NCBI GenBank assembly: GCA_007135955.1
Contig: SLHW01000003.1
Coordinates: 27,198 to 51,197 of the forward strand
Length of the DNA stretch: 24,000 nt
Source of the DNA: Candidatus Saccharimonadota bacterium
GTDB lineage: Bacteria; Patescibacteriota; Saccharimonadia; Saccharimonadales; SLHW01
Direction of reading: 5' to 3'
Shown: in pieces, positions 6,518-18,138 of the stretch
How the letters are laid out: every line of letters starts with the position of its first letter
Numbering within the stretch: position 1 is the stretch's first letter
Position numbers and translations under genes: made by a program
The notes under the pieces: model-generated
What the model was told of the DNA's origin: nothing
Databases searched by the model: none
Seen by the model: the letters and a program-made list of their open reading frames with translations, nothing else

Positions 6518-7567
6518 ATGGCTAATCGACGAGAGAAGATGCAGCGACAGAAAAAAATAAAGACCATTATCACTGTGGTCACGTTTATCGTGCTGGCATT
6601 GATAACCTACGGTATCCGAGATCAGATTGCAGAAACTATAGACAATTTACAAACCGCCAATCCATGGCCGATACTACTGATAATTCCGCTAGCTTTCGTC
6701 AATCATTATTCGTTGGGCAAGTTGTATCAATCGGTGTTTCGAACACTTGGTGACCGATTTCGTACCAGGTCAATGATTCGGCTTAGCCTGGAGCTCAACT
6801 TTGTTAATAACGTTTTTCCTTCGGCTGGAGTGAGTGGCTTTTCGTATATCGGCTTGCGAATGAAAGGTGAAGAGATTGCAGCAGGTAAGTCGGCGCTTGT
6901 ACAGGTCATGCGTTTTGCTCTGCAGTTTATTTCGTTTCAGTTGTTATTGGGCCTTGGGCTACTATCACTTTCGATAGCAGGCAACGCTAACAACTTTGTA
7001 ATTATGGTTGCCGCTTCACTGGTGACGCTACTGTTTGTAGGTACTGGCCTTGCATTGTTTATCATCAGCAGTAAACAACGGATGAATGGTTTTTTTACAG
7101 GACTTACCAGGTTAGCTAATCGGCTGATTCAGTTTATTCGTCCGAAGAACCCAGAAACTATCAATATCCGTCGGGTCGAGCGGTTATTTACCGAGCTACA
7201 TAAAAATTACCGTCGCGTTAGGCACAATTTGCTCGATTTGAAAAAACCTTTGTTCTACGCCCTAGTGTCAAACCTTACCGAAGTACTATCAATTTTTGTG
7301 GTATTTATAGCGTTCGGCGCATCTGTTAATATCGGCGCGGTGATTATTGCTTATGCGGTTGCAAACTTTGCTGGCATTATGTCTGTTTTGCCAGGAGGTA
7401 TTGGGGTCTACGAAGGACTTATGACTGCAGTGTTAGTGGCGACTGGTGTCCCGGTAGCGATTAGTTTGCCAGTGATTGTGACATTTCGGATTGTGAGCAT
7501 GGCTACACAATTACCAATCGGATATTACTTTTATCAGCGAAACCTCAGCGAGCAAACTCACTTATGA
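6518..7567 (+). CDS. UPF0104 / lysylphosphatidylglycerol-synthase-TM-like (flippase-like) integral membrane protein
   Basis: 349 aa with multiple hydrophobic helices and the C-terminal PGGIGVYEG motif characteristic of the family. Confidence 0.7.
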   Translation: MANRREKMQRQKKIKTIITVVTFIVLALITYGIRDQIAETIDNLQTANPWPILLIIPLAFVNHYSLGKLYQSVFRTLGDRFRTRSMIRLSLELNFVNNVFPSAGVSGFSYIGLRMKGEEIAAGKSALVQVMRFALQFISFQLLLGLGLLSLSIAGNANNFVIMVAASLVTLLFVGTGLALFIISSKQRMNGFFTGLTRLANRLIQFIRPKNPETINIRRVERLFTELHKNYRRVRHNLLDLKKPLFYALVSNLTEVLSIFVVFIAFGASVNIGAVIIAYAVANFAGIMSVLPGGIGVYEGLMTAVLVATGVPVAISLPVIVTFRIVSMATQLPIGYYFYQRNLSEQTHL

Positions 7568-10265: not shown

Positions 10266-10961
10266 ATGTCAATCGAGTACAAAAATGCATCAATGACGCA
10301 CCATGCCACCCATGAGCGCTCACTGGCACTACAACTGCAACAGGCGTTGCTACAAATTTCTCAGTATGCTCAAGGAGCGCAGGTTGACGCCCGGGCAATC
10401 GAAGTGACAGCCCGGCGAACTCTTGATTTAATTGATTGCTATCTTTTAGGGTCTCGTGGCCCAGATCAACTAAGGCTTCACCTCGAGCCAGTGTCGCTCG
10501 GCTCTATCGTCCAAGAAGCACTCCACCAGCTTACCCCGACTGCAGAGCAATATGACTGCCAGCTTTGGCTCAAGTCAACTGGTAGCCCCGCGCTTATCTA
10601 TACCGACAAAGAACTTGCCAAGATGGCGTTTGTTGGGCTTGGCCATAGCTTTATCGAAGAGGCAGCCAGCCAGAGCAAAGCTCGGCGAGTAGTCTTTGCA
10701 GTGAAGTCTCGTTTAGCAGGTCCTACGGCTGGTGTTTTTTCGCCAGGAATAGACGTCAAGGCTCGTTCACTAGAGCAACTCAGAAATTTGCAAGGGCAAG
10801 CCTCGCGGCAGAGTGGCAGTTTTAGTAGCACTGCGACCGGTGTAGTGCTGGCTGACGCTTTACTCAAGCGTATCGAGACGCAACTGTTTGCGACAAGCTT
10901 CCATCACATTAAAGGGTTCGCTGCAACATTTGATAAAAGCACCCAGCTTCAACTTGTCTGA
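10266..10961 (+). CDS. cytoplasmic histidine-kinase-like protein (DHp plus degenerate catalytic domain), probable pseudokinase
   Basis: H-box-like HATHERSLALQLQQALL near the N-terminus. CA-like region LEPVSLGSIVQEAL...IYTDKELAKMAFVGLGHSFIEEA has His where the N-box Asn is expected, and no clear DxGxG or GxGLGL boxes. No TM or sensor domain. Confidence 0.5.
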   Translation: MSIEYKNASMTHHATHERSLALQLQQALLQISQYAQGAQVDARAIEVTARRTLDLIDCYLLGSRGPDQLRLHLEPVSLGSIVQEALHQLTPTAEQYDCQLWLKSTGSPALIYTDKELAKMAFVGLGHSFIEEAASQSKARRVVFAVKSRLAGPTAGVFSPGIDVKARSLEQLRNLQGQASRQSGSFSSTATGVVLADALLKRIETQLFATSFHHIKGFAATFDKSTQLQLV

Positions 10962-10962
10962 T

Positions 10963-11337
10963 ATGCTACGGATTGTTCTCATAGAACCAAACACAGTACT
11001 TGCTCGGCAGTACTCTGAAGCTATTACTGACGAATTAAACGAAGTGGTGATTGCGCACTCAGCAGAGACCGCGCTAAGTGCGCTAGACGCTCCGACAGAT
11101 ATGATTGTGCTAGAGCTACAACTTGGTCCACATAATGGGCTCGAGTTGCTCTATGAAATCCGCAGTTATGAGGATTTAGCGGAAACGCCAGTAGTTATCT
11201 TGAGCAACGTTAGTTCCAGTTATGTAACCAATGCTAAGAGCTATGAGCTACTCGGTATTTCCGAATATTTATATAAGCCACAGACAACACTTCGTTCACT
11301 GAAACGCACAATAACTAGCTTGCTTGAGGACGATTAG
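10963..11337 (+). CDS. receiver-domain protein with Glu at the phospho-acceptor position (atypical or pseudo-receiver)
   Basis: MLRIVLIEPN... (acidic pair replaced by E-P), DMIVLELQLGPHNG (Asp to Glu at the acceptor position). ILSN and YLYKP (Ser and Lys) are retained. ATG 10963 is preferred over ORF-track start 10888, which overlaps the upstream gene. Confidence 0.7.
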   Translation: MLRIVLIEPNTVLARQYSEAITDELNEVVIAHSAETALSALDAPTDMIVLELQLGPHNGLELLYEIRSYEDLAETPVVILSNVSSSYVTNAKSYELLGISEYLYKPQTTLRSLKRTITSLLEDD

Positions 11338-15771: not shown

Positions 15772-16311
15772 ATGAGAGAACTAGAAATCAAAGCAAAAGT
15801 GGCGAGCAAAGATGCGCTTCTACGAAAACTTCAGAAATACTCGATTGCTCTAGGTGAGCCAGTACGTCAGCAAGATATTGTTTTTGCTCAAGTTGACGGT
15901 GATCCAGACCAAAGCAAAAATAATTGGCTAAGAATTAGAAAAGAAGGACAAAACTATACTTTTACGTTGAAGCGCGCGGTGACTGGTGAGCTAGATAACA
16001 TAGAACACGAAACTAAAATAACAAATCCAGAAGAGTTAGAAAAGGTACTCGAGCTAATCGGTTTTAAGCGACATAGTGAAATCGATAAAACTCGGCAAAA
16101 GGGATAAGTACAAGATATTGAAATTTGCATCGATGAGGTAGCCAGACTCGGCTTTTTTATAGAAGCAGAACTCATGGTTGACGATGACGCTGACTACACG
16201 GAGTCATACGAAAAACTTTGGCAACTACTCGACAAAATCGGCGTAGATCGTTCAGGTGAAATAACTAAAGGCTATGATGTATTAATCAATGAAAATAAAA
16301 TAATATTATAA
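15772..16311 (+). pseudogene. CYTH-domain protein (class IV adenylate cyclase CyaB / triphosphate tunnel metalloenzyme-like) interrupted by one in-frame TAA
   Basis: N-terminal ExExK signature (RELEIKAK). The ORF stops at TAA 16105-16107, but the same frame continues as VQDIEICIDEVARLGFFIEAELMV...ITKGYDVLI to TAA 16309-16311, matching the CYTH C-terminal half (LDxVxxLGxFxExE). Total 179 sense codons, the normal CyaB-like size. Confidence 0.8.
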
Positions 16312-16320
16312 TAATAATAA

Positions 16321-16329
16321 TGTTATAAT
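16321..16329 (+). promoter_or_regulatory. consensus extended -10 box 7 nt from ATG 16337 (leaderless-type)
   Basis: TGtTATAAT, then aaataat, then ATG. No SD. Confidence 0.5.
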
Positions 16330-16336
16330 AAATAAT

Positions 16337-16531
16337 ATGGAATCAAAGTCAGTTCAAAAAGTTATCAAGGTAGGCTCCAGCATTGGAGTAACTATTCCAG
16401 CGCGCGAAGCTCGCTATCATGGCATCAAGCCAGGCGATAAGCTGCAACTTGTTATTCGTCACGACGACGAAGGCGGCATCCTACTAAAAGTTATGCGCTT
16501 GTCTTGGTTACGACGTATTTTTAGCCGGTAG
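16337..16531 (+). CDS. AbrB/MazE/SpoVT-family swapped-hairpin DNA-binding protein, 64 aa
   Basis: VIKVGSSIGVTIPAREARYHGIKPGDKLQLVI fits the SpoVT-AbrB domain pattern (GnSxxvtIPkxxxxxlgixxGDxv). No MazF/PIN-type toxin gene is adjacent. Confidence 0.75.
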   Translation: MESKSVQKVIKVGSSIGVTIPAREARYHGIKPGDKLQLVIRHDDEGGILLKVMRLSWLRRIFSR

Positions 16532-16575: not shown

Positions 16576-16584
16576 TGTTATGCT
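16576..16584 (+). promoter_or_regulatory. extended -10 box upstream of the heliorhodopsin gene (SD-led transcript)
   Basis: TGtTATGCT (16576-16584), about 30 nt upstream of ATG 16621, which is preceded by the strong SD AAGGAG (16610-16615). Confidence 0.4.
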
Positions 16585-16620
16585 ATGCTTAAAAATACAA
16601 ACAACCAAAAAAGGAGACAT

Positions 16621-17394
16621 ATGCTTAAAAAGAAAAAAAAGCTTGAGAATCTCGTTAAGCTAAATATCATCGCATCCGGCTTTCATGCAGTGCAAGGGCT
16701 TCTAATTCTTCTGATTAGCAGTAGCTTCGCTCTGCCGGTGACGACTCGTTTTCTCGTTTTTGATGAAGCGACTCAGTCGCTCCAGCAGTCTTCAACTGCA
16801 TTGTTTGATCTAAAACTAGCCTATCTTGTGGCTGGCTTTTTCTTCTTGTCGGCGCTGTTTCACTTTTTGATAGCGTTTGTATTCCGTAAGAAGTACGTGA
16901 GCGATCTAATGCAGGGGTTCAATAAGTTTAGATGGTGGGAGTATTCAGCTTCAGCATCTATTATGATGGTGGCAATTGCCATGCTGGCTGGCGTTTACGA
17001 GTTGTCATTACTACTTTCTATCTTCTTCTTTACTGCGATTATGAATTTGCTCGGTTTAGTGATGGAAGTACACAATCAAACTACTAAAAAAACCAATTGG
17101 TTGAGCTTTAATTTAGGTTGCCTAGCAGGAATTGTCCCGTGGCTTATCGTTGGAATATATTTCATAGGAACGGCTGCTGAGAGTGGCGCTGATGCGATAC
17201 CAGCGTTCGTGTATTGGATATATGTATCGATATTTATCTTCTTTAACGCATTTGCGGTAAATATGGTCTTGCAGTACAAAAAGATTGGAAAATGGAAGGA
17301 CTATCTCTATGGCGAGAAGTCATACATCATCTTGAGTTTTGTTGCCAAGACGTTGCTTGCATGGCAGGTTTTCGGTGGCACATTGCAACCATAA
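16621..17394 (+). CDS. heliorhodopsin (7-TM retinal-binding photoreceptor)
   Basis: Collinear with my recollection of heliorhodopsin 48C12: GFHAVQ, SALFHFLIA, FRWWEYSASASIMMVAIA, GCLAGIVPWLIVGIYFIG, YGEKSYIILSFVAKTLLAWQVFGGTLQP. The Schiff-base Lys (SFVAK) and counterion Glu (WWEYS) are present. ATG 16621 is preferred over 16585 because of the SD. Confidence 0.9.
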   Translation: MLKKKKKLENLVKLNIIASGFHAVQGLLILLISSSFALPVTTRFLVFDEATQSLQQSSTALFDLKLAYLVAGFFFLSALFHFLIAFVFRKKYVSDLMQGFNKFRWWEYSASASIMMVAIAMLAGVYELSLLLSIFFFTAIMNLLGLVMEVHNQTTKKTNWLSFNLGCLAGIVPWLIVGIYFIGTAAESGADAIPAFVYWIYVSIFIFFNAFAVNMVLQYKKIGKWKDYLYGEKSYIILSFVAKTLLAWQVFGGTLQP

Positions 17395-17435
17395 TTGGAT
17401 GATTGTCAGTTTATAGCTTTTTCTATCATAGCTTA

Positions 17436-18014
17436 CTAAAGCTTTATCAATTTTTTGGCAGATAAATACCCAAGAGATTCGGCATTATGGTAGCCAATAT
17501 GTATAGCTTCGTAGTGGTATCTTGGATTATCGACTTCTAGTGTCATGCGCTCTGCTAAATCATCTAGAATAGCTGATTCAAAATCATCATAGTAGATTTC
17601 TTCTGCAGGCATTTGATCAAACTCTAATAGATTAGCAAAGCTTGTAACAGTGTCGGGGTGATGTTCCCCCCAATGGTGCCTTGGGTATAAGAACATGGTT
17701 TTTGCGAGAGCTAAATGTCCCCCGAATGCATAGATGTCTCGAATTGATTGGGCACGCCGAGGCGAATTTGGCTCTTTCTGCTCGGCAAACTTCCCGGCAA
17801 ATATTTCGATGACTGCTGAAGAAGACGGAAAGTAGCCTAGGCTAATATCTCGAATAATTAATGAAAGTCGTTCTTTTGCTTGACTGTATAGCTGGTCAGC
17901 ATAAGTTACTGATTCAAGCACTTGCGCCTCACCTATCTCAATAGCAGGTACTGGAGCGGCGATATGATCGACGATCTCAGCGAGGTGTATATTGTCTCTT
18001 TCTGGAAAAATCAC
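17436..18014 (-). CDS. hypothetical protein, 192 aa, no recognisable family
   Basis: ORF with only a minor opposite-strand shadow overlap, convergent with the heliorhodopsin gene (41-nt gap). GTG start; His-rich patch PRHHWGEHHPD. Confidence 0.55.
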   Translation of the reverse strand: MIFPERDNIHLAEIVDHIAAPVPAIEIGEAQVLESVTYADQLYSQAKERLSLIIRDISLGYFPSSSAVIEIFAGKFAEQKEPNSPRRAQSIRDIYAFGGHLALAKTMFLYPRHHWGEHHPDTVTSFANLLEFDQMPAEEIYYDDFESAILDDLAERMTLEVDNPRYHYEAIHIGYHNAESLGYLSAKKLIKL

Positions 18015-18020
18015 ACGAAA

Positions 18021-18026
18021 ACTATA
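18021..18026 (-). promoter_or_regulatory. -10 box 6 nt from GTG 18014 (leaderless-type)
   Basis: The - strand reads TATAGT, then tttcgt, then GTG. It sits in an A/T-rich tract with TTATAA repeats. Confidence 0.3.
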
Positions 18027-18130
18027 TCATATTATAATTATAATTCAACTACTGCACAAATCAGGCCACAACCTTACTTAAACGATGATCAGTATACACT
18101 TAGCGGTTTTTGTTTAAAATATATCAACTG

Positions 18131-18136
18131 TACAAT
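18131..18136 (+). promoter_or_regulatory. -10 box 5 or 8 nt from the helicase ATG codons (leaderless-type)
   Basis: TACAAT, then gggtg, then ATG 18142 and ATG 18145. Confidence 0.35.
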
Positions 18137-18138
18137 GG

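Follow-up and report, generated by a model that had tools for sequence, protein, structure and literature searches.

The founding member of the heliorhodopsin (HeR) family is 48C12, encoded on a freshwater actinobacterial fosmid (PDB 6SU3, 6SU4, and 6UH3), and TaHeR from Thermoplasmatales archaeon SG8-52-1 (PDB 6IS6, 7U55, and 7CLJ) is the best solved relative of the protein described here. This protein is a 257-residue HeR encoded on the forward strand at 16621-17394 (stop codon included) of a 24,000-nucleotide stretch, hereafter the window, of contig SLHW01000003.1 from a Candidatus Saccharimonadota bacterium. Kovalev et al. 2020 documented 17 polar or charged residues that are conserved across HeRs, namely S237, E107, S111, S76, H23, H80, N101, Y108, N16, E230, R104, Y92, E149, Q216, Y226, W105, and Q213 in 48C12 numbering (PMC7049168). 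In a screen of 1,326 genomes from the candidate phyla radiation (CPR), Chiriac et al. 2022 recovered 98 HeRs, 80 of them in Saccharimonadia, and found SLVAK, SLIAK, and SFVAK to be the commonest motifs of helix G, the seventh transmembrane helix (PMC9166423). Patescibacteria were also included in the HeR neighborhood analysis of Bulzu et al. 2021 (PMC8612252).

Family membership, fold, and retinal pocket

The product of 16621-17394 is a genuine, intact member of the HeR family, and no evidence contradicting that membership was found. It is very probably a retinal-binding, non-pumping sensor or regulator of the TaHeR type, which would use scavenged retinal and signal to a partner protein through a long-lived intermediate. 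The evidence obtained directly concerns its family, fold (as a model), active-site residues, topology signal, selection, and host identity. The Pfam heliorhodopsin profile PF18761 is matched from end to end (profile positions 1-242 of 242, E value 5.9e-94, 314 bits against a gathering score of 26.7), and the NCBIfam equivalog NF038020, named "heliorhodopsin HeR", is matched at 321 bits against a cut-off of 100. The top PDB sequence matches are TaHeR (6is6, E value 6e-77; 54% identity over 237 aligned residues) and 48C12 (6su3, E value 2e-56; 45% identity). The initial annotation had called the gene an apparently functional HeR collinear with 48C12 and had set three 48C12 segments beside it; these segments agree with the deposited sequence in an HMMER alignment, and the family profiles, aligned residues, intact gene, and purifying selection all support the call.

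The AlphaFold2 model, built from a 50-sequence alignment, has a mean predicted local distance difference test score (pLDDT) of 93.7. Its seven predicted helices span residues 2-32, 66-87, 102-122, 128-154, 160-188, 195-219, and 228-254, and it also contains the HeR-specific AB β-hairpin (predicted strands 37-48 and 53-65) and a short predicted BC helix (89-97). Foldseek ranks HeR crystal structures on top of its matches to the model, with template modeling (TM) scores of 0.84-0.94; the match to 6is6 scores 0.91/0.94 with a root-mean-square deviation of 1.8 Å. Lysines and arginines, including an N-terminal KKKKK, number 18 in the predicted cytoplasmic segments vs. two in the outside segments, a charge distribution that predicts the inverted topology with a cytoplasmic N-terminus and an external C-terminus. 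Identification as a type-1 microbial rhodopsin was rejected: the protein has no match to PF01036 (Bac_rhodopsin) even at an E value of up to 1, carries SxxxK rather than DxxxK, and has a Glu rather than an Asp counterion. Foldseek comparisons with type-1 rhodopsins reach TM scores of only about 0.6, at 8-16% identity.

The closest HeRs in species-representative genomes come from metagenome-assembled genomes (MAGs) of Saccharibacteria and Patescibacteria (50-76% identity), followed by those of Thermoplasmatales archaea (47-55%). A neighbor-joining tree, which is distance-based, carries no support values, and is therefore indicative only, agrees with the family assignment and places the protein within a Saccharibacteria/Patescibacteria clade that adjoins the Thermoplasmata (TaHeR) clade and lies far from 48C12.

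Residue positions were carried over from 48C12 through the HMMER alignment, and all four active-site residues named in the initial annotation are recovered by it. The retinal Schiff-base lysine is K243 (codon AAG, 17347-17349), which sits in S239-F-V-A-K243 and corresponds to K241 of 48C12 (S237...K241) and K238 of TaHeR. The counterion is E107 (codon GAG, 16939-16941) in R104-W-W-E107-Y-S, equivalent to E107 of 48C12 and E108 of TaHeR. Both K243 and E107 are invariant in 50 homologues. The two conserved histidines are H22 (codon CAT, 16684-16686), held in GFHAVQ and equivalent to H23 of 48C12, and H81 (codon CAC, 16861-16863), held in ALFHF and equivalent to H80.

Sixteen of the 17 residues listed by Kovalev et al. 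are identical in this protein. The only difference is at Q213, which is replaced by Met (M215), a frequent variant at that position (PMC7049168). The serines that support the counterion, S77 and S111, are kept, and the cavity set is identical (H22, H81, N15, Y92, N101, R104, Y108, E232, E149, Q218, Y228, and W105). In addition, P40 and P172 of 48C12 are kept as P39 and P173, while the 48C12 surface cluster Q26/S242/W246 appears as Q25/T244/W248.

The reading frame is uninterrupted up to 17394, and its longest form begins at an ATG at 16585. Compared with seven relatives (72-84% amino acid identity), nonsynonymous divergence (dN) is 0.11-0.22 and synonymous divergence (dS) is saturated. Since this saturation makes the dN/dS ratio incomputable, codon-level counts were used in its place, and in each of the seven relatives the codon differs at about 60% of the conserved residues. 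Because synonymous sites are saturated while the protein is conserved, the gene is under purifying selection rather than decaying. The identical protein is found in at least three NCBI MAGs and in several independent read-set assemblies.

These observations bear on the idea of a mis-called open reading frame (ORF), or of a relic gene that is decaying or without function, in a streamlined genome that is unable to make its chromophore. A nearby retinal pathway is lacking and a neighboring CYTH-domain gene appears to be split, as such an explanation would have it. It is nonetheless effectively excluded by the intact frame, the retention of all catalytic and cavity residues, the strong conservation of the protein over saturated synonymous sites, the conserved Shine-Dalgarno (SD) sequence ahead of its start, and its recovery in several MAGs and independent assemblies.

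Proposed mechanism and chromophore supply

Pigment formation, the photocycle, the lack of transport, the sensor role, the partner, and the source of retinal are read here from characterized relatives and the literature. The seven-helix protein would be inserted with its N-terminus in the cytoplasm. By analogy, all-trans retinal would form a covalent, protonated Schiff base with K243, stabilized by E107, S239, S77, and S111. Behind the Schiff base would lie a polar, water-filled cavity whose lining comprises H22, H81, N15, Y92, N101, R104, Y108, and E232. Light would isomerize the retinal, and the Schiff-base proton, as in TaHeR and 48C12, would shift inside the cavity and be released to neither side. 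A long-lived intermediate would then alter the cytoplasmic or lipid-facing surface and modulate a partner protein, and the HeR would thus serve as a sensor or regulator and not as a pump.

A light-driven or light-gated proton transporter like the viral V2HeR3, which would supply or dissipate proton-motive force, is improbable. Proton transport has been reported for a viral HeR, as cited in PMC11109279 and PMC12873467, and CPR bacteria have few ways to energize their membranes, as Jaffe et al. argue for the type-1 rhodopsins of Saccharibacteria (PMC9296517). The present protein, however, falls in the TaHeR-related clade and outside the viral subfamily, and it retains the cavity residues of non-transporting HeRs. 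It also keeps the pattern linked by Kovalev et al. to the hydrophobic extracellular half that most HeRs have (PMC7049168), and neither 48C12 nor TaHeR releases the proton to the bulk (PMC9726877).

Several points weigh against the sensor or regulator model. No CPR HeR is known to have such a role. At the two positions tied by Kovalev et al. to the tighter lateral fenestration of 48C12 (PMC7049168), the residues are I171 and F205 in this protein and are thus 48C12-like rather than TaHeR-like (F172 and A200), and therefore the "open window for retinal capture" described from TaHeR is not automatically transferable; F205 is invariant among the 50 CPR-type homologues aligned. Genes for a two-component system, glutamine synthetase, photolyase, or ABC transporter are absent beside the HeR gene, and a conserved operon partner was rejected, as the neighbors of the gene are common only to its closest clade and are entirely different elsewhere. 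Finally, the absence of retinal synthesis is taken from the 24-kb window and the literature on other Saccharibacteria.

The host, a member of Candidatus Saccharibacteria (CPR), is haloalkaliphilic and has a genome of about 0.8 Mb. The exact HeR protein is encoded on PWPC01000052.1 (GCA_003558765.1), and Vavourakis et al. 2018 describe PWPC00000000 as Candidatus Saccharibacteria bacterium CSSed10_402R1, a MAG of 0.82 Mb (44.8% GC) recovered from the sediment of Cock Soda Lake (PMC6146748). The window has a GC content of 44.5%. A reduced-genome host, raised conditionally in the initial annotation, is thus borne out. The remaining window genes are ordinary chromosomal ones, including those for CTP synthase, L27, XseA, RecO, a class-II aminoacyl-tRNA synthetase, a Pif1-type helicase, GH1, and YvcK.

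At the Pfam level, none of the 28 window ORFs matches a family of carotenoid or retinal enzymes. The window ORFs that lack Pfam matches likewise include no Blh-type multi-pass membrane protein; they have at most three hydrophobic segments, and those of Blh-like size have none or one. The earlier observation that the window holds no retinal-synthesis gene therefore stands at this level. Jaffe et al. 2022 found that rhodopsin-encoding Saccharibacteria lack blh and proposed their actinobacterial hosts as the source of retinal (PMC9296517), and a lateral fenestration has been proposed as the entry route for exogenous retinal in TaHeR (summarized in PMC9385722). Since synthesis genes are missing from the vicinity and, according to published surveys, from Saccharibacteria that bear rhodopsins, the chromophore would be scavenged and is most likely acquired from the host or the surroundings.

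Neighboring genes and expression signals

The gene directly upstream of HeR encodes a 64-residue small DNA-binding protein of the AbrB/MazE/SpoVT type (16337-16531, forward strand; Pfam MazE_antitoxin, E value 4e-07, 30.3 bits against a cut-off of 24.7). It lies on the same strand, 89 nucleotides upstream, and is a possible co-transcribed neighbor. The immediate clade comprises eight distinct genomes (the window and loci L005, L085-L088, L094, and L095), and the AbrB-like gene directly precedes HeR in all eight. The order in this clade is a membrane-anchored protein of about 280 residues, a variable gene, the AbrB/MazE-like gene of 61-64 codons, and HeR, followed by a variable slot, the Pif1 helicase, an unknown protein of about 295 residues, NYN, GH1, and YvcK. 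The region is syntenic throughout, so shared ancestry explains the adjacency of the two genes, which therefore provides no independent evidence of a functional link.

A linkage beyond this clade was sought by iterating profile searches over the locus ORFs and scanning metagenomes, and it was rejected when only two more clade members with HeR emerged. No HeR was detectable in the retrieved flanks of 11 distant AbrB-like homologues (L096-L106), where the flanks extend to at most 3 kb and some contigs are far shorter. The AbrB/MazE-like gene has no adjoining toxin gene. Residues 54-64 of its product form a conserved basic-aromatic tail, LSWLRRIFSR here and SWWRRLF in relatives (SW[WL]RR[LI]F).

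It is highly improbable that, in this Saccharibacteria genus, HeR and the upstream AbrB/SpoVT-type protein act together as a minimal light-to-transcription switch. The AbrB-like tail would in that case dock on the cytoplasmic face of HeR or on the membrane and be released or captured upon illumination. The adjacency in all eight genomes, the apparently leaderless upstream gene behind a perfect extended -10 element, and the strongest SD of the window ahead of HeR fit such a switch but lend it no independent support.

The 192-residue ORF that converges with HeR (17436-18014, reverse strand) has no match in Pfam, NCBIfam, or PHROGs, and the same is true of the 295-residue neighbor. The slot between HeR and the Pif1 helicase (17395-18138) is variable; it is filled by the 192-residue ORF here, by an aldo-keto reductase in L085, L087, and L005, and by a DNA_alkylation repair protein in L086, and it is empty in L088. 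Partners were sought by tblastn of 29 window proteins against 84 related HeR loci and by all-against-all clustering of 735 flanking ORFs, in which generic ABC ATPases formed the largest cross-clade cluster. None of the ten partner-gene classes of Shim et al. 2024 (including glutamine synthetase, photolyase, ABC transporter, and MerR; PMC11109279) adjoins HeR. Because the neighbors are conserved only in the genus-level clade, no partner protein was identified from them.

The methionine sulfoxide reductase MsrA (Pfam PMSR) is encoded within about 1.1 kb of HeR in seven of about 85 non-redundant loci, five from Saccharibacteria (L008, L018, L022, L024, and L055) and two from Thermoplasmatales (L030 and L035). 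The two genes tested, at 5295-5942 of L024 and 4442-4897 of L035, match at E values of 1e-62 and 1e-69 and lie 7-24 nucleotides upstream of HeR on the same strand. These seven loci probably represent only about two or three independent synteny groups. MsrA goes unmentioned in the main text of Bulzu et al. 2021 (PMC8612252).

This association relates to the proposal that HeR protects the cell from oxidative or DNA damage in a light-dependent way, turning on repair or detoxification functions instead of classical signaling, which is unlikely but carries more weight than the transporter or the switch. An oxidative-stress role was proposed by Bulzu et al. 2021 (PMC8612252) and Chiriac et al. 2022 (PMC9166423). 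In addition to the seven MsrA loci, it draws on the Pif1 helicase that flanks HeR throughout the clade and on the DNA-alkylation-repair protein or HhH-GPD glycosylase in the flanks of relatives. The few independent synteny groups diminish the MsrA association, however, and the window contains no msrA, glyoxalase, glutaredoxin, or photolyase gene. The repair-type neighbors sit in the variable slot and differ between genomes. Such protection is also a sub-case of the sensor or regulator model rather than a true alternative to it.

Translation from the ATG at 16621 is better supported than from the alternative in-frame ATG at 16585-16587, which gives a 269-residue version and is chosen by database gene calls. 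The shorter form is favored because an SD, AAGGAG, lies at 16611-16616, four nucleotides ahead of its ATG, because homologues are almost all 253-257 residues long, and because the closest relatives keep the SD ahead of the equivalent Met or Val start. This SD is retained in L085, L087, L005, and L088. An SD-like motif occurs within 30 nucleotides upstream in only five of the 27 window genes, with that of HeR the best, in line with the initial annotation, which had ranked it among the few strong ones.

The same annotation had placed an extended -10 box and a long leader ahead of HeR. A pattern search does recover two overlapping candidate extended -10 elements on the forward strand, TGTTATGCT at 16576-16584 and TGCTATGCT at 16581-16589, and TGnTAnnnT elements recur in the equivalent, poorly conserved spacer of L085, L086, and L088. 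Their hexamers are weak, however, agreeing with TATAAT at four of six positions, and a sigma-70 scan called no promoter in the 89-nucleotide spacer. The long leader was not established, given the unstructured 89-nucleotide spacer and the lack of a terminator within it; no terminator was found past the HeR stop codon either. Folding z-scores near zero indicate no unusually stable structure in the HeR leader or 3′ spacer, Rfam has no match in the window, and a regulatory RNA or structured leader was rejected on these grounds. The window also contains no tRNAs.

A perfect extended -10 element, TGTTATAAT (16321-16329, forward strand), ends eight nucleotides ahead of the ATG of the AbrB-like gene, as seen both by eye and in the -10 scan. 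It implies a leaderless AbrB-like transcript that could read through into HeR. The HeR gene may be transcribed from its own promoter with a leader of about 30-40 nucleotides or by read-through from the upstream gene, with which it would then be co-transcribed. A -10-like hexamer ends 5-12 nucleotides ahead of the start codon in 10 of the 27 window genes, for example TATACT at 9-10 nucleotides ahead of the starts at 6518, 12249, and 21485. Because these hexamers sit just before starts and SD-like motifs are confined to five genes, the sequence suggests that this Saccharibacteria genome commonly uses leaderless mRNAs.

Further observations concern the surrounding genes and the related loci. The CYTH-domain (CyaB-like) gene is split into ORFs of 111 residues (15772-16107) and 45 residues (16174-16311) on the forward strand, and relative L085 has an intact 181-residue gene. 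Because the split is reproduced in the independent assemblies L090-L093, it is a real disruption in the population and not an assembly error. Two stand-alone response-regulator receiver-domain proteins are encoded on the forward strand at 1845-2264 and 10888-11337, and the window contains no histidine kinase. A 231-residue ORF (10266-10961) without a family match overlaps the second receiver gene.

Saccharibacteria-type HeRs also occur in L025 (LNGD01000252.1, 1.6 kb, binned as Methanofastidiosum), which is nearly identical to L026 in the tree, and in L034 (DATLJN010000049.1, 3.3 kb, binned as Magnetospirillaceae). Their presence in these unrelated MAGs probably reflects mis-binning rather than true occurrence, which bears on the published claim that diderm bacteria lack HeRs.

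Comparison with described heliorhodopsins and Saccharibacteria rhodopsins

The identification is correct, and the protein is of an already described kind. It is not new because Saccharimonadia HeRs with SFVAK have been published (PMC9166423) and because NCBI labels its close relatives "heliorhodopsin HeR [Candidatus Saccharibacteria bacterium]", so the novelty implied at first does not hold. The questions of retinal source and physiological output are likewise already in print for TaHeR, Saccharibacteria rhodopsins, and CPR HeRs (PMC9296517, PMC9385722, and PMC8612252). An organism of about 800 genes in which purifying selection maintains an HeR although no retinal is made offers a compact setting for seeking the partner and the chromophore route, an argument that has already been published for CPR bacteria and for TaHeR, but the locus has no conserved partner gene and hence makes the question no more tractable here. 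Its practical value is that it gives the Saccharibacteria HeR clade a soda-lake representative that is correctly annotated and expressible.

Like TaHeR, the protein has Met at the position of 48C12 Q213, the N142, A112, and T138 variants, and a polar bend in the AB loop (FDEA here and YDEI in TaHeR). The TaHeR host is likewise reported to have no retinal pathway (PMC9385722), but it is an archaeon and not a CPR bacterium. The present HeR differs from TaHeR by a six-residue insertion in the EF loop (TAAESG), by I171/F205 in place of F172/A200, and by T244 in place of Ser.

48C12 is collinear with the present HeR and shares its Lys/Glu/His/Ser set and the I/F fenestration residues. In contrast, it belongs to a different subfamily that is distant in the neighbor-joining tree, has Q213 where this protein has M215, and bends its AB loop at GPPG rather than FDEA. 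Its host lineage is able to make retinal.

The Saccharimonadia HeRs of Chiriac et al. 2022 share the lineage and family of the present protein, whose SFVAK is among their commonest helix-G motifs (PMC9166423), and nothing categorical sets it apart from them. Whereas that survey and the one of Bulzu et al. 2021 (PMC8612252) centered on freshwater genomes, this HeR is a soda-lake representative. The SacRs, type-1 proton-pumping rhodopsins of freshwater Saccharibacteria, share its host phylum and its chromophore problem: they are not accompanied by blh, their retinal is proposed to come from actinobacterial hosts, and they take up external retinal rapidly (PMC9296517). They are nevertheless unrelated to the present HeR: their topology is the opposite one, they carry a DTS pump motif, and they have been shown to pump protons (PMC9296517).

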